Part shown: positions 2,734-8,451 of the stretch, piece after piece
Numbering within the stretch: the stretch's first letter is position 1
How the letters are laid out: every line of letters begins with the position of its first letter
Origin: a virus
Lineage: Duplodnaviria > Heunggongvirae > Uroviricota > Caudoviricetes
Virus record (IMG/VR): IMGVR_UViG_2690316131_000008
Length of the DNA: 16,062 bases
Direction: 5' to 3' (one strand)
The notes under the pieces: generated by a model
Seen by the model: only the letters and a program-made list of their open reading frames with translations
Database searches by the model: none
What the model was told of the DNA's origin: nothing
Position numbers and translations under genes: made by a program

Positions 2734-3549
2734 TCAATGAACGGTATCGAGCAGCTTTAACAGCTCAGGGAATCGGGATTCGAAGAAATGCGGCTGCGTC
2801 TCGCGCGGATTTGCGGGACTGGTGATGTTCTTGCCGAACATGCAACCTTTCGCTGTCAGCGACCAGAATTTTTTGATGTTGTTAATCGCGGTACGGCTGT
2901 ATCGTTCGCGTTGTTCAACGATCCCCAGCTTCGCCATCTGGTGATATGCCTGATTAGCCGTCAGGCGGATACCATACTGCTTCAGCAGTGCACTCAGCGA
3001 CAGCGTAGGGCGGCTTGAACCATCTGGCGCATCAGCAGGTGCATCAATGGCATAGATCGGCATAAGTTCAGGAAGACCAGCTACCTTTGATAATTTCTGG
3101 TATGCACCAAGTTTCGAGGAGTTTGACAGATTTAGAGTCTTTGCTGCTGATTCAAGCAGAATGACCCCGGATTTAATTTTGTCGGATGTGGTTTCTTCTG
3201 GTGATGAATTATGAAGCGCATCAAAAGTACGTATCACTTTTAAGCTGAATGCCGGGCTGATCCACATTGCATATGCATAGACCAGCTCTTTACAGACATA
3301 CGTCCCACCATTGCGCCCCTGAATGGTGATGACAGGAATACTACGGGAATCTCCCGTAGTTTCTTCTTCCAGTAATTCCACAAGAGCCTTCGTTTCAGGA
3401 CGACGCATAAACTCGTGAACTTCCAGCGAACGGGAGGAGCGATTCTCACCAGCGGCAAGAAGAGCAGCTTTCTGAAGGTCGTTAAGACAGTAGTTAGATT
3501 CGAAGTACTGGCGCACAGAAACGCCATCAATTACAAGCAACTGATTCAT
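2734..3549 (-). CDS. KilA-N domain protein (antirepressor-like)
   Basis: N-terminal segment ...GRNGGTYVCKELVYAYAMWISPAFSLKVIRTFDAL fits the KilA-N signature. Start set at the ATG at 3549 (MNQLL, GGAG ~7 nt upstream); the track's 3561 start is a GTG. Confidence 0.65.
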   Translation of the reverse strand: MNQLLVIDGVSVRQYFESNYCLNDLQKAALLAAGENRSSRSLEVHEFMRRPETKALVELLEEETTGDSRSIPVITIQGRNGGTYVCKELVYAYAMWISPAFSLKVIRTFDALHNSSPEETTSDKIKSGVILLESAAKTLNLSNSSKLGAYQKLSKVAGLPELMPIYAIDAPADAPDGSSRPTLSLSALLKQYGIRLTANQAYHQMAKLGIVEQRERYSRTAINNIKKFWSLTAKGCMFGKNITSPANPRETQPHFFESRFPELLKLLDTVH

Positions 3550-3711
3550 TGGTTTCTCCACAAATTTTTATCCACGAGCGGGACTGCACTCCCTTTTCGT
3601 TGATGCAGGATGAACTTACTGCGATTTTTAATAGTTATCAAGGATACACTGTTCATAAATACAGTATCTTTAACGAGGTAATACCCAAATTTAGGGTGTT
3701 GCTCAATTCCG

Positions 3712-4107: not shown

Positions 4108-4430
4108 ACTTTCAGGCCCCTCTCATGTAACCAGTGGGCTGCACGCAGCCTGGCGTTTGCCTCACCGGCAAGCAGGGCGCGGATAATCCCGACCGCCTCG
4201 CTGTCGTCGTCCTTCACCGCGGTATGAAGAGTGATACCCCGGGCCACGCCACGCTTTATCGTGATGACACCTTTTTTCTCCAGTGCGCGAAGATGCTCCA
4301 CCGCTGCATTCACCGAACGGTATCCCAGCATGGTTGCCACCTCCTGATTGGTTGGCGGGAAGCCACGTTCTTTCTGATAAGAAATCAGCATATCCAGCAC
4401 CTGCTGCTGGCATTGAGTTAATGTCGTCAT
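4104..4430 (-). CDS. LexA N-terminal DNA-binding domain protein, no peptidase domain
   Basis: MTTLTQCQQQVLDMLISYQKERGFPPTNQEVATMLGYRSVNAAVEHLRALEKKGVITIKRGVARGI parallels the LexA N-terminal winged-helix domain. Only 108 aa, so no S24 domain. ATGA overlaps at both ends. Confidence 0.65.
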   Translation of the reverse strand: MTTLTQCQQQVLDMLISYQKERGFPPTNQEVATMLGYRSVNAAVEHLRALEKKGVITIKRGVARGITLHTAVKDDDSEAVGIIRALLAGEANARLRAAHWLHERGLKV

Positions 4431-5080
4431 GCCGCCATCTCCCTGACCAGTTTTTCCGCCTGCTGGCGAACCTGCGCCAGAAACGCCTCACCACATACCT
4501 CAAGTTCATCGCGCCCGATGTAGCTGATTGCCGCTCCCTTCCAGGTCTTGTCGAAAACAGCAATAGCACCAGCGAAGAAAGCACCTGTTGGCACCTGCTT
4601 TTCGTCTTTCGGGATAAACCAGGCTGGCAGTTCAAAACCAATACGCCCGCGAATAAAAGCAATATGATCTGCATCTTCCGGCCACCATACTTCGCTGGTG
4701 GCCGCTTTGATCAGGAAAACATAGCGCCCGCCCTTATCACGCATGGCACTGGCATGTTTCATGATGTAACGCATGCCGGTGATGTATTGCCCCTCATGCT
4801 GACTGGCGCGGCTGTATGGGGGATTACCAAAGGCAGCACCTTTAAGCTCCGCAAGACGTTCTGACCAGTCATGCGCCAGCGCGTTGTCTTCCGCCGTGTA
4901 ATACGCGGCACATTTGGCGTTATCACCGTCAGTGAACAGATCCAGAACAAACGGACCAAACAAGGTGTTAATTCCCCAGAAAATGTTGTCCGGCGTGCGC
5001 CACTGATCGCCCACTTCCTTCAGTTCATGGGCTGGTTTGTTCCGCAGCTCCACCAGCGCCTGGCAATATTTATTACTCAT
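4427..5080 (-). CDS. Phage Dam-type DNA N6-adenine methyltransferase
   Basis: N-terminal DQWRTPDNIFW (DxWxTP-like) and catalytic GNPPYS (NPPY) motifs. Start refined to the ATG for MSNKYCQ at 5080, which shares one base with the upstream TAA stop. Confidence 0.8.
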   Translation of the reverse strand: MSNKYCQALVELRNKPAHELKEVGDQWRTPDNIFWGINTLFGPFVLDLFTDGDNAKCAAYYTAEDNALAHDWSERLAELKGAAFGNPPYSRASQHEGQYITGMRYIMKHASAMRDKGGRYVFLIKAATSEVWWPEDADHIAFIRGRIGFELPAWFIPKDEKQVPTGAFFAGAIAVFDKTWKGAAISYIGRDELEVCGEAFLAQVRQQAEKLVREMAA

Positions 5081-5571
5081 TAAGCCCCCACGTAATTCCC
5101 TGACAGATACCACTCTTCACCCGATGCAGCGCGCTTGCTGCTTTTCCGTAAGCACCGCTCACGATGCGCCAGAAAATTGTTTCGTTCTGGCTGGGAGTGG
5201 CTTTCACGGAATGCCGCCATCCACACCGTTGCAGCACGACGGTATAAGCCCCTGGACTCCAGTTCTTCCGCCTGGCGGGTCAACAAAATCACCCGGGGAT
5301 CGTTAGTGCCGACATAGAAATTGCGCACAGGTCTGGTTTCACGAACTGGTTGTGGTTCCGGCTCCTGCGCTCTCTCAGTCAGGCGTGGGAAATGTCTGCG
5401 TGTATCTCCTTCACAACGGTGAGCCACACGCCCACTCTGACGTAACTTGCTTGCTGACTGCAGAACGCGCTGCCGTGAGTAACCAGCAAAAGCATCCGCA
5501 ATGTCTCCGGAAGTACACCCCGGATGGGCTTCAATGAATTTCTGAACTTCATTCAAAAGACTCATGATCAC
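5080..5571 (-). CDS. PerC-like putative transcriptional regulator (prophage YfdN-like)
   Basis: Segment LTRQAEELESRGLYRRAATVWMAAF resembles the PerC-family core as I recall it; Arg-rich N-terminal half. GTG/ATG start overlaps the stop of the upstream replication gene. Confidence 0.45.
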   Translation of the reverse strand: MIMSLLNEVQKFIEAHPGCTSGDIADAFAGYSRQRVLQSASKLRQSGRVAHRCEGDTRRHFPRLTERAQEPEPQPVRETRPVRNFYVGTNDPRVILLTRQAEELESRGLYRRAATVWMAAFRESHSQPERNNFLAHRERCLRKSSKRAASGEEWYLSGNYVGA

Positions 5572-6560
5572 CCCCTGAATCCTGCCGGGATCTGGCTGTA
5601 GTCCACGTTGTCGTAACTGGATTTGAAGTACGGGTCTTCGCGTTTTTCGGTGTACGTGCTGACGGACGGCGATAAGCGCAGGGAAAGCTCATCCCATTTT
5701 TCCCGCAGCTTCGACGGGCTGAGCACGTTACGGCACCAGAACGGATCGCGGCTGACGCGGCAGTACATCTCGCAGATTTGTTTGTGAGTACGCCCATCCT
5801 GTACACACATCAGGCGAATTTCGTTTGCCCAGGCTGTCCAGTTCGGTTCTTTAGGACGTACCACTTCGCCGTCACATTCGGCGGCCTGCTCGTACAGAGC
5901 GATGATTTTTTTCCAGAGCCACTGTGCGCAGGTCAAATCATCCTGCGTTCCCCACTGGCGCTTTTTAGGGCTGAATACAACCGCATCAGGATGGCGAGTT
6001 AAAAAATCCTGTTCAGCCATCTGCGTGTCCGGTTGCGAAGCGTCCGGACGAGAAGAGGTTTTATTCTCTGTAGTAATCTCTGTTGTATTCTCTGTAAGAT
6101 CATTGGGCCATTTTGACCCGATGACAGCGTGTCGTTTTGAACCAATGGATCGTGTCATTTTGCGCCCATCCATCAGGTCACTTTGACCCGATGGAGAAGT
6201 GCATTTTGACCTAATGGATTCGTTCACTTTGACCTCTTCTAAAAGCTCACTTTCATAGTTGATCGTGTAGAAGTTGGTCATGTCACGCTTCGATTTATTG
6301 AGTTGCTCGCGACGCAAAACCCCAAGTGATTTCAGGCTTGCAAATGTGCGTTTCAGAGTGGACTCTGACCAGAACGGAAACTGCTCCAGCCACTGTTCTG
6401 TCGTGTTATAAACCCAGCGAATTCCGCCATGCTCAGTGCCGGAATTCGTTTCATTCAGCCAGTAATGAAGCTGCTGCAACACAATTGCCTCATTCAGACC
6501 AATACGGCATGCAAGATCACGATTTATCACAATGGGCTGGGATGTCATTAACAGGCTCAT
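5568..6560 (-). CDS. Phage replication initiation protein (lambda O analogue) with internal origin iterons
   Basis: 330-aa ORF with a helix-turn-helix-like N-terminus and a Cys/Trp-rich C-terminal domain. The central linker region is encoded by the iteron array at 6109-6240, as in lambda O/ori. AGAGGT RBS precedes the ATG at 6560. Confidence 0.65.
   Translation of the reverse strand: MSLLMTSQPIVINRDLACRIGLNEAIVLQQLHYWLNETNSGTEHGGIRWVYNTTEQWLEQFPFWSESTLKRTFASLKSLGVLRREQLNKSKRDMTNFYTINYESELLEEVKVNESIRSKCTSPSGQSDLMDGRKMTRSIGSKRHAVIGSKWPNDLTENTTEITTENKTSSRPDASQPDTQMAEQDFLTRHPDAVVFSPKKRQWGTQDDLTCAQWLWKKIIALYEQAAECDGEVVRPKEPNWTAWANEIRLMCVQDGRTHKQICEMYCRVSRDPFWCRNVLSPSKLREKWDELSLRLSPSVSTYTEKREDPYFKSSYDNVDYSQIPAGFRG
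6109..6240. repeat. Iteron array (putative origin of replication): six ~23-bp direct repeats
   Basis: Direct repeats starting at 6109, 6133, 6156, 6179, 6202 and 6225 (cattttgacccgatg / cgttttgaaccaatgg / cattttgcgcccatcc / cactttgacccgatgg / cattttgacctaatgg / cactttgacctc), period 23-24 bp. Flanked at 6061-6100 by three copies of TCTCTGT at 12-bp spacing. Confidence 0.7.
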
Positions 6561-6729
6561 GACCGACCTCTATTTCCCTGAATTTACGACGAAACTGTTC
6601 GAGCGGGCTGAAGCACTCATGTTCATAGCCTTCACGGAGGTAGATAACCCGTTGTGTTTCCGGCTCCCAACGAATGACTCTGACGGGCACTCCGTAGTGA
6701 TCTTTGAACCAGCGGTTAACTTGTCGCAA
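6517..6729 (-). CDS. Small hypothetical protein (possible DUF4222-like); frame ambiguous
   Basis: Frame encoding ...[47 protein letters not shown]... looks protein-like. A TTG start at 6729 is preceded by AAGGAG at ~8 nt; the track's 84-aa ORF begins at a GTG at 6771. Overlaps the O-like start by 44 nt. A competing 112-aa frame (6570-6908) is described in the findings. Confidence 0.35.
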
Positions 6730-6904
6730 AGGACTGTCTCCTTCTGCCGGTTGAAATCCCCCACAGCCCACTCTGCAAAGCTGTGGGTTACAATTTCCCT
6801 GTCACCTGGTACATTCACTGCATAGCAATACTCCACCTTCGCTTTTCCACCCGGTACAGGAAGCGCAATCAGTTGCGAGCGACGGTAGTGTGTTGTTAAA
6901 CTGT

Positions 6905-7546
6905 TCATGCGTTAGTTTCTCCACAACCAGAAGCAATCGACGCCACGACGCCCGGAGCTGCACACTCGCGGGCGTTACTCTTTTCCGGCGCACAAAAAAC
7001 ACGAAATAACAGTGTTAAATGCTCCTGCCACTTCGCCATTACTTGGTAGCTGTTCTCTTCGATTTGCTCACGCTCAGCTTGGTCAATAACTCCATCAGCA
7101 GTTGCCTTGCGTAAGTACTGGGAATGCTTGCCAATCCATTCTATTGACTCCATCAGCCGCTGATTAATGTCACCATTGTCAATGTCATCAATGACCACCA
7201 GCGGCACAAACACCCCATTACTACGACGGGCTATTGCATCCGTTACATGCCTGGTACCACTGGCATCCTGTAAAACCATGGCCCACTCAAGTGGAAAAAT
7301 TTGATCCCCACCGCTACGCAGTCTGTTATGCAATTGATCTTTTGCTGGGGTGATATCATCAGATTTATACAAACCAAGAATTTCTGCTGCTTCCTCATAG
7401 CCATGAGGTAAATCAGCAATCGTTCTTCGTATTGCTGCCACCAGCCATGCTGGTTGCTTATCAACTTTCCATTCAGGTTCTTTACCCACGTTTAAGCCCT
7501 CATATCTGTGGTTTCTGTAAATCGATTTATCCATTAGATTTTTCAT
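6905..7546 (-). CDS. YdaT/CII-like putative regulatory protein
   Basis: Sits directly downstream of the Cro/YdaS-like gene, where lambdoid and Rac-type prophages carry cII or ydaT. Start set at the ATG at 7546 (MKNLMDK...), since the track ORF (to 7603) would overlap cro by 77 nt. Functional assignment is positional. Confidence 0.45.
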
Positions 7547-7727
7547 AAAGCTCAGGTTTAAATGGCAACCGTCCGCAAGTTCTATATGCAGCCTCTGCTG
7601 CACGTCCTTTTGGAATTAACTGGCCAGGACGGTTTCGCCACTGATAAACGGCTTCAGTTGTTATGCCGAAAAAAGCAGCAACTTTCTCAATGCTGCCGAA
7701 GTAGCTTTCGATATCGTCAGTCGTCAT
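7527..7727 (-). CDS. Cro/YdaS-like HTH transcriptional regulator
   Basis: 66-aa protein; [46 protein letters not shown] fits the Cro/YdaS-type HTH pattern. Divergent from the CI-like repressor across a 97-bp operator region. Confidence 0.7.
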   Translation of the reverse strand: MTTDDIESYFGSIEKVAAFFGITTEAVYQWRNRPGQLIPKGRAAEAAYRTCGRLPFKPELYEKSNG

Positions 7728-7738
7728 ATGCCCTCCAA

Positions 7739-7803
7739 ACTAAGTTTTATTAGATGTTAATTATCAATCTATCTTAGGTCAATAAAAACTAAGATTACTT
7801 AGT
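7739..7803. promoter_or_regulatory. Divergent promoter/operator region (OR-like) with two 16-bp operator-like sites
   Basis: ACTAAGTTTTATTAGA (7739-7754) and ACTAAGATTACTTAGT (7788-7803) share the pattern ACTAAG-N4-nTTAGn with inverted half-sites, in the 97-bp gap between cro and cI. Confidence 0.5.
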
Positions 7804-7824: not shown

Positions 7825-8451
7825 ATGGAAACGGTTGGTCAGCGTATAAAAGCTCTGAGAAGAGTTACCAGAACGTCCCAGAAAGAATTGGGTAAATTTT
7901 GTGGAGTAAGTGACGTTGCTGTGGGGTACTGGGAGAAAGACATCAATGTCCCTGGTGGGGAAGCACTTTCAAAATTAGCGAAGTTCTTCAATACGTCAAT
8001 AGATTACATTCTTTATGGTGCGGAGTTTGAAGGCAAACTCGTCACAAACATGCGCAGAGTTCCTGTAATCTCGTGGGTTCAGGCTGGGCAGTTTACTGAG
8101 TGCAGGACAGCAGAAGTGTTTAGTGAAGTAGACAAGTGGGTAGATACATCATTAAAGATTGGTGATAACTCATTTGCATTGGAGGTTAAAGGCGACTCCA
8201 TGACTAACCCTAACGGCCTCCCAACAATACCAGAAGGCGCAACAGTGATTGTAGATCCTGATGCAGAACCCCGGCATGGAAAAATAGTCATCGCTAGACT
8301 TGATGGAACAAACGAAGCCACAGTAAAAAAATTAGTTATCGATGGCCCTCAAAAGTTTTTAGTGCCATTAAATCCCCGGTACCCCAACATCCCGATCAAT
8401 GGTAATTGCCTCATCATTGGTGTAGTCAAAGGAGTTCAATACGAACTCTAG
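7825..8451 (+). CDS. CI-like phage repressor (N-terminal HTH, C-terminal S24 LexA-like peptidase)
   Basis: N-terminus QRIKALRRVTRTSQKELGKFCGVSDVAVGYWE is an XRE-type HTH. C-terminus carries GDSM (Ser nucleophile) and VKKL (Lys general base about 40 residues later), as in LexA/lambda CI. Confidence 0.85.
   Translation: METVGQRIKALRRVTRTSQKELGKFCGVSDVAVGYWEKDINVPGGEALSKLAKFFNTSIDYILYGAEFEGKLVTNMRRVPVISWVQAGQFTECRTAEVFSEVDKWVDTSLKIGDNSFALEVKGDSMTNPNGLPTIPEGATVIVDPDAEPRHGKIVIARLDGTNEATVKKLVIDGPQKFLVPLNPRYPNIPINGNCLIIGVVKGVQYEL

Follow-up and report, generated by a model that had tools for sequence, protein, structure and literature searches.

Bacteriophage lambda's origin of replication, ori-lambda, lies inside gene O and consists of four iterons and an AT-rich tract; the N-terminal domain of the O protein binds the iterons whereas its C-terminal domain binds P. 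Origin repeats are also found within repA in RepA_N plasmid replicons of Gram-positive bacteria (e.g. pSK41 RepA), and repeated elements occur in the unwinding regions of other origins, such as the 13-mers of E. coli oriC and RK2 oriV or the DnaA-trios next to DnaA boxes. Phages in which an in-gene iteron origin is established are lambda, P22, L and the Stx phages; for SPP1 and 80alpha one has been inferred (PMC7466680, PMC8022706, PMC5499656). The Stx phages 933W and P27 carry six lambda-type iterons, while P22 and L have iterons of their own inside gene 18 (PMC7466680, PMC8022706); in Stx phages, strong binding is seen at four of the six iterons only (PMC7466680). Here we describe a comparable arrangement in a 16,062-nucleotide stretch of caudoviricete DNA (IMG/VR record IMGVR_UViG_2690316131_000008; hereafter the window, with positions counted along the + strand), where an array of iterons and an adjoining tract of 10-mers lie inside the gene for an O-like replication initiator. 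Judging from the sequence comparisons presented below, it is very probably from this array that a lambda-like temperate phage or prophage of the mEp460/SfII/SfIV group starts its vegetative replication, an origin placed inside the gene for its own initiator, where the two domains of that protein meet.

An iteron array and a 10-mer tract inside an initiator gene

The initiator gene is an open reading frame on the - strand (5568..6560) encoding 330 aa. Its product matches the PHROG family phrog_391 ('replication initiation O-like') over its entire length (E 2.4e-101, residues 1-330 versus profile 1-298 of 298), and has no Pfam or NCBIfam family match. Six head-to-tail repeats, each ~18 bp long, occupy positions 6103-6241 at a spacing of 23 bp, with one gap of 24. 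The TTTG of the units starts on the + strand at 6112, 6136, 6159, 6182, 6205 and 6228, giving spacings of 24, 23, 23, 23 and 23. A preliminary description of this stretch had reported six direct repeats starting between 6109 and 6225 every 23-24 bp, within the coding sequence of an O-like protein; both statements are borne out, our register lying 3 nt later. On the coding (-) strand the core of the iteron reads AGGTCAAAATGAC, and the family consensus is T..A..AGGTCAAAATGAC.., each iteron forming an imperfect palindrome around a central A-tract (core GGTCA-AAA-TGAC).

Numbered in the direction of the gene, and all on the - strand, the units are U1 (6219..6241, core AGGTCAAAGTGAA at 6223-6235), U2 (6196..6218, core AGGTCAAAATGCA at 6200-6212), U3 (6173..6195, core GGGTCAAAGTGAC at 6177-6189), U4 (6150..6172), U5 (6127..6149, core GGTTCAAAACGAC at 6131-6143) and U6 (6103..6126, core GGGTCAAAATGGC at 6107-6119), the last of which lies 24 nt from U5. 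Clear palindromes are present in U3 (CCATCGGGTCAAAGTGACCTGATGG) and U6 (CATCGGGTCAAAATGGCCCAATG). The best in the array belongs to U3, where CCATCGGGTCA-AAG-TGACCTGATGG spans 6170-6194, the pattern is matched on both strands, and the DNA forms a 12-bp stem when folded as a single strand. Measured about the centre of the A-tract, dyad symmetry of the core is weak (score 0.39; another, shorter centre scores 0.41). U4, the + strand unit at 6159, is a degenerate copy here (GGCGCAAAATGAC at 6154-6166) and well formed in relatives (GAGGTCAAAGTGA); constraint on U4 may be relaxed. Close variants in viral contigs differ in protein at this very spot (MDGRK, MDERK or MDARK). A further, seventh repeat position at 6251 is degenerate.

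The periodicity of the array is far beyond chance. Over 6100-6260 the DNA matches itself at lag 23 with an identity of 0.565, a value that none of 5000 shuffles approached at any lag (highest 0.43); the self-comparison proposed in the preliminary description thus shows a period, and this is also the most periodic stretch of the entire window. Allowing for two mismatches or fewer, all five matches to TTTGACCNRATGGA in the window fall inside 107 bp (6112-6218), and Tandem Repeats Finder detects both the iterons and the 10-mers. Elsewhere in the window there is no second periodic array or motif cluster, DnaA boxes (TTWTNCACA) are absent throughout, an Rfam scan of the full 16 kb returns no match, and a promoter/terminator scan places neither signal inside the array.

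Downstream of the iterons in gene direction, at 6061-6094 on the - strand, follow three 10-mers of the form CAGAGAWTAC spaced by 12 nt: CAGAGAATAC (6085-6094), CAGAGATTAC (6073-6082) and CAGAGAATAA (6061-6070). Read on the + strand they appear as the three TCTCTGT copies (6065, 6077 and 6089) that had already been noticed, at 12-bp spacing, in the preliminary description. There they were said to precede the repeats, which holds for the + strand only; in the direction of the gene the 10-mers come after the iterons, as the AT-rich tract does in lambda. Two exact matches to CAGAGAWTAC exist in the window, both in the tract, and three of the six matches with up to one mismatch are located there; a total of six was reached in none of 200 shuffles. 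The tract has a G+C content of 30% (6060-6099), and the least stable 40-bp duplex of the gene starts at 6059 (-44.6 kcal/mol, compared to a window-wide mean of -54.0 with a standard deviation of 4.3). Neither strand of the tract forms secondary structure when single. Low stability and a lack of single-strand structure are the properties expected of an unwinding and loading tract.

Both tracts are constrained as DNA

The iteron core is translated in three frames (IRSK, SGQS, GRK, IGSK and IGSK), and the period of 23 nt, not being a multiple of three, cannot reflect a peptide repeat. We measured conservation by codon position among 17 enterobacterial homologues that are <97% identical to each other. 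The region encoding the N-terminal domain displays the normal coding pattern, with values of 0.93, 0.97 and 0.74 at codon positions 1, 2 and 3, respectively. For the iterons the three values are 0.91, 0.93 and 0.90; for the 10-mers they are 1.00, 0.86 and 0.99, and for the linker after the 10-mers 0.77, 0.74 and 0.71. The one variable base of the 10-mer occupies a second codon position, where the encoded residue changes between N, I and S. Because synonymous sites are fixed while residues vary, we conclude that both arrays are selected as DNA.

The 10-mer tract encodes the peptide LTENTTEITTENKT. A repetitive linker had been proposed for this tract and a repetitive peptide is indeed encoded, but it does not read ITTEN..., as previously given, and its coding sequence is constrained as DNA too. 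This can be seen in codon usage across the wider family of relatives described below, when the linker is defined only at the peptide level and compared to the remainder of the same genes. Glutamate in the linker is specified by GAG in 114 cases and by GAA in two, compared to 697 and 1266 elsewhere; for threonine, ACA/ACT and ACC/ACG are found 225 and 0 times, compared to 910 and 726 elsewhere. The TENTTEITTENK tract (the "TEITTE linker") is therefore a DNA-level element as well, with codon choice almost fixed.

The repeats go with the N-terminal domain of the initiator

The region upstream of the array (6240..6560, -) encodes the N-terminal domain (aa 1-107), which we predict to be an origin-binding winged helix. 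An AlphaFold2 model built from 34 homologues (predicted local distance difference test score, pLDDT, 85) has the order of helices and strands typical of that fold, and the best Foldseek matches in the PDB are winged-helix regulators along with entries 4pql ('N-terminal domain of DNA binding protein') and 5kbj ('Rep-DNA complex'). Matches to the latter two, which we take to be RepA_N plasmid initiator domains (the tool gave no such label), are weak (template modelling score, TM, ~0.45-0.5; E 3e-3 to 2e-2) and no better than those to ordinary winged-helix regulators. Searching PDB sequences with a profile of the domain yields marginal winged-helix matches only (E >= 0.1), and hhalign finds no detectable relation between the domain family and residues 1-138 of lambda O (probability 0.04). 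In Pfam, the initiator matches neither Phage_rep_O, the type of the lambda O N-terminal domain, nor RepA_N, nor the Phage_rep_org_N and DnaD (DnaB_2) models of the SPP1 G38P type. The PHROG family phrog_6493 ('DnaD-like helicase loader', E 2.7e-35) covers the N-terminal domain alone.

The C-terminal domain (aa ~185-294; 5679..6008, -) is homologous to that of lambda O: BLASTP aligns residues 147-294 of the initiator with lambda O 135-270 at 34% identity over 148 aa (E 4e-27). Eight of the nine residues encoded by the last nine codons, SQIPAGFRG (5571..5597, -), are those of the C-terminus of E. coli DnaT (SQIPPGFRG), a likeness that is confined to the tail, the rest of the initiator being dissimilar to DnaT. 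Since no helicase loader gene follows, the tail could be a mimic of DnaT through which the host DnaB/DnaC or PriA/PriB machinery is reached. The tail is probably also the reason for the database label 'Primosomal protein I', under which the initiator is annotated in Escherichia virus mEp460_4F5, a phage 99.9% identical to the window; the CDS so labelled shows the same 99.9% identity to our gene.

Comparison with related phages reveals which part of the protein the repeats accompany. SfII, SfIV and others (~15 phages besides SfII) share the C-terminal half of the gene at 96-97% DNA identity (5568-6070), and similarity is lost at ~6070. In the alignment with SfII, similarity begins directly after the last 10-mer. 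The N-terminal domain of SfII is unrelated and its gene lacks the 10-mers; in the same position as our iterons, Shigella phage SfII has 15-bp repeats (3499-3646 of locus L003; GATTTTGACGGGTCA, with the palindrome TGACnnGTCA) that encode DPSKSDASKS. The neighbouring 112-aa gene is 98% identical between the two phages. HannyBb, which has the same N-terminal domain (78% identity), keeps both the 23-bp repeats and the 10-mers. From these two comparisons it follows that the repeats travel with the N-terminal domain and nothing else. As far as the sequences tell, SfII and the window thus represent a natural swap of origin specificity.

Comparison with lambda and other described origins

The layout parallels that of lambda in several respects. 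In both cases the origin, here a probable one, is contained in the initiator gene, where N- and C-terminal domains meet, in a gene situated after cro and cII-like genes; in both, a central A-tract and dyad symmetry characterise the iterons (lambda TCCCTCAAAACGAGGGA; here GGGTCAAAATGACC), a low-stability tract that is purine-rich on the coding strand is promoter-distal to the repeats, and the C-terminal domains are homologous. In the alignment of the O proteins, IGSKWPNDLTENTTEITTENK stands opposite lambda LGDCYPSKQGDTKDTITKEKRK, which iteron 4 and the AT-rich tract encode, so that U6 and the 10-mers come to lie opposite these two elements of lambda. On the strength of this alignment, the two origins occupy homologous positions and have the same polarity with respect to transcription.

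There are also clear differences. The N-terminal domains have no detectable sequence relation, and six ~18-bp iterons with a strict 23-bp period replace the four 18-bp iterons (as given in the lambda record) at 20-24 bp, so that the preliminary description was right to note a different repeat sequence and number. Conserved CAGAGAWTAC 10-mers take the place of a generic AT-rich tract, no P gene follows, and the protein ends in the DnaT-like tail. A scan of lambda ori for the 10-mer finds a single 9/10 copy, CAGAGAATTC, which is not above chance. It is located just after the AT-rich tract (1365-1374 of locus L004, lambda 39164-39173) and contains an EcoRI site.

In the Stx phages, P22 and L, as here, the repeats differ in number and sequence along with the initiator but keep their place inside the gene (PMC7466680, PMC8022706), although their repeats and N-terminal domains are of other sequence types and none has a CAGAGAYTAC tract as far as described. 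RepA_N replicons resemble our locus, on the reading proposed here, in having the origin in the initiator gene and a winged-helix N-terminal domain joined to a host-specific C-terminal domain; they differ in that our initiator has no RepA_N match in Pfam and its fold match is weak. The 10-mers for their part recall the repeated elements of oriC, RK2 and the DnaA-trios, being a short motif present in two to four copies at about one helical turn, directly beside the predicted double-strand sites of the initiator. Their sequence is a different one, however, their G+C content is only moderately low, and they are conserved across phyla, which is unusual for unwinding elements.

The 10-mers recur in initiators of distant phages

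Homologues of the N-terminal domain (43-82% identity) were drawn from genome and viral contigs and from annotated phages, the latter comprising Staphylococcus phage 96, Bacillus TP21-L, Lactobacillus mv4, a Listeria phage, Pseudomonas AF and Erwinia PEp14. Hosts range from Citrobacter to those of the Gram-positive phages, and genomes labelled Taibaiella and Caulobacteraceae are included. In most homologues the periodicity of the gene peaks just after the N-terminal domain, at a period of 22-24 nt (or twice that), with an iteron core that is usually centred on CAAAATG and followed by copies of CAGAGAYTAC. We surveyed 75 distinct non-enteric genes for the 10-mer, in the zone between nt 280 and 700 and with at most one mismatch. 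One copy or more is present in 74 genes and at least two in 70; of copies found, 168 lie in this zone and none outside it. Neighbouring copies are 11 nt (35 cases) or 12 nt (49 cases) apart, and 37 of the 75 genes have copies in two frames, encoding for example TRDY versus TETT. The 10-mer is found again in relatives belonging to phages of Staphylococcus, Bacillus, Listeria and Lactobacillus as well as in genomes assigned to Bacteroidota and Proteobacteria.

The C-terminal domains joined to this N-terminal domain are diverse: lambda-O-like, Phg_2220_C (a Citrobacter locus and Lactobacillus phage mv4; L005, L112), DnaA domain I (DnaA_N, in a contig labelled Janthinobacterium lividum; L018, gene from 482), DnaD-like (DnaB_2, in Staphylococcus phage 96, L110, 1992-2747, and nowhere else among the C-terminal domains scanned) and DUF6017 (L022). 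Such variety is what a module for origin binding, combined with exchangeable modules for recruitment, would be expected to show. The genes downstream vary as well, with DnaB and a loader in phage 96, a primase/helicase in AF and none of these here.

When viral contigs are searched in reverse for a double 10-mer, it is found behind this N-terminal domain in 43 of 123 cases. The remainder lie mostly behind more distant N-terminal domains of similar pattern, at aa ~140-210 of initiator-sized proteins, some of which carry the same lambda-O-like C-terminal domain; a handful are unrelated low-complexity proteins (L290, L309, L294, L210). We had considered that the 10-mers might be specific to a narrow family of N-terminal domains, an idea the more distant domains lead us to reject. 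In viral contigs bearing CAGAGAYTACNNCAGAGAYTAC (L197-L316), most occurrences outside the narrow family fall midway along initiator-sized proteins whose N-terminal pattern is distantly similar (..A..LSQ..YW....DGWFYKS..EW..ETG.TR.EQ..AR..L), and these proteins likewise match no Pfam model. Taken together, these sequences look like a broad superfamily of phage initiators for which Pfam has no model.

A model of origin function and its alternatives

We envisage the following scenario. Early rightward transcription from the cro side would lead to synthesis of the 330-aa initiator, whose N-terminal winged helix would bind the six iterons at their 23-bp spacing, probably as dimers. The resulting nucleoprotein complex would then distort the DNA and open the adjoining low-stability tract, where three 10-mers are placed about one helical turn apart, and the C-terminal lambda-O-like domain would recruit the host helicase machinery. 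Binding to the iterons, opening of the 10-mer tract and the path by which the helicase is loaded are all steps that we infer. The more general proposal, already made in the preliminary description, that this is an in-gene origin of the lambda type has the support of every prediction that could be tested at the level of sequence: an O-like initiator with a C-terminal domain homologous to that of lambda O, constraint on the DNA, co-variation with the N-terminal domain, a predicted winged helix, and a low-stability tract in promoter-distal position.

Several observations nonetheless weigh against an origin at this site. U4 is degenerate and U1 weak, so that the number of sites in use may be below six. 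A+T enrichment of the 10-mer tract is only moderate (30% G+C, and ~40% in Gram-positive relatives), and the window contains several intergenic stretches of lower stability. Downstream of the initiator there is no P-, DnaB- or DnaC-like gene, and hence no gene for a helicase loader. The conservation statistics derive from related sequences, and their independence is accordingly overstated. Finally, full-text searches of the literature for the repeat sequences and for this type of origin returned nothing relevant and no experimental evidence.

Might the repeats instead be a mere by-product of a low-complexity linker between the domains, with no role as DNA? Their inter-domain location would suit such a linker, as would the 12-nt repeat, a multiple of three that encodes TENTTEITTENK, and the double 10-mer does occur in a few unrelated low-complexity proteins (L290, L309, L294 and L210, as above). 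The data contradict this explanation, to which we give next to no credence: the 23-nt period places the core in three frames, the third codon position is as well conserved as the other two in the iterons and nearly invariant in the 10-mers even as the residue varies, the 10-mers are read in two frames in 37 of 75 relatives, and glutamate and threonine codons in the linker are strongly biased. A different possibility is that the iterons are genuine binding sites but serve only autoregulation, copy control, exclusion of related phages or another phage protein, with replication being initiated elsewhere. Plasmid iterons also mediate copy control and incompatibility, in line with such roles. Cloned fragments of lambda ori, moreover, inhibit related phages (PMC3349717, PMC4488673). 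We nevertheless consider a purely regulatory role unlikely. At the domain joint, the iterons and the unstructured tract of low stability after them reproduce the lambda layout position for position, the 16-kb window offers no other periodic array or motif cluster, and the array co-varies with the N-terminal domain of the initiator rather than with the neighbouring gene and is kept in relatives that differ in their other genes.

One might also ask whether the main role of the 10-mers is that of a common linker where homologous recombination exchanges N-terminal modules (origin specificity) and C-terminal modules (recruitment) between phages. The mosaic joint with SfII-type phages falls exactly at the end of the 10-mer tract, and the same 10-mers are found between diverse N- and C-terminal domains, as such a linker would require. 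Yet SfII itself has no 10-mers, 20-40 bp is short for efficient homologous exchange, and selection for future recombination would be weak when set against near-invariance across phyla, while copy number (usually two to four) and one-turn spacing resemble an array for binding or unwinding. We regard recombination as a very unlikely main function; it is possibly a side effect of origin function and not a true rival to it.

If the array is indeed an origin, what do the 10-mers contribute? Keeping in mind that we hold this a little short of probable, the sequence data raise the possibility that CAGAGAYTAC is a sequence-specific element for opening or loading the origin and not a peptide linker, usually in two to four copies 11-12 nt apart, always directly after the iterons, and shared across the superfamily of winged-helix phage initiators, for which neither Pfam nor NCBIfam yielded a model and whose members come from phages of Proteobacteria and Firmicutes and from genomes assigned to Bacteroidota. 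A specific reading of the 10-mers is suggested by the fact that they are conserved in sequence and not merely A+T-rich. Candidates for a common reader are the initiator, acting on one melted strand, and a universal component of the host replisome. Rep proteins and DnaA bind one melted strand at their unwinding elements. Lambda O binds AT-rich single strands (PMC7466680). By analogy with these proteins, it may be the initiator that reads the 10-mers once the DNA is melted, a proposition for and against which we see the chances as roughly even.

An iteron origin inside the initiator gene is a textbook arrangement, of which this locus is a further, previously uncharacterised example that is very common in E. 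coli. The origin is annotated in no database. Knowing it together with its specificity module would help to predict replication compatibility and exclusion among co-resident prophages, to derive replicons, and to annotate thousands of genomes. Across distant hosts a single anatomy recurs, made up of a winged-helix domain, 22-24-bp iterons, CAGAGAYTAC 10-mers and a variable recruitment domain, and conservation as DNA across phyla, seen here for the 10-mer, is rare for a sub-element of an origin. We found no description of the cross-phylum 10-mer in the literature searched, which did not include the principal review of phage replication modules, so that priority is uncertain. Were the 10-mer functional, it would provide a simple sequence handle for phage origins and a testable model of how winged-helix initiators open DNA.

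Phage context and distribution

The window corresponds to a lambda-like early region. On the far side of the array from the C-terminal domain, the initiator gene is preceded by the 112-aa gene (6570-6908, -), a cII-like gene (6905-7603, -) and, on the opposite strand, a cI-like repressor gene (7825-8451, +). Downstream of the initiator (4427-5571, -, and beyond) lie genes for a 163-aa PerC-like 'transcriptional activator', a Dam methylase, a small LexA-like protein and RusA, after which come Q-like genes, also part of the early region. It appears that the replication module has the initiator as its only component.

The only sigma-70-like promoter match between 5400 and 8000 is at 7754-7782 on the - strand (TTGACC-17-TAACAT; a match to consensus only), pointing leftward from the gap beside the cI-like gene toward the early genes and the initiator. 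This is where a pR-like promoter would be expected, and its transcripts would cross the origin.

Of 5426 complete E. coli genomes, 1840 (about a third) carry the module of N-terminal domain and origin, O157:H7 and O111 strains among them, with ~220 matches at >=95% identity and ~1600 at 80-90%. RefSeq labels the module gene in E. coli a 'hypothetical protein', next to a DUF4222 gene.

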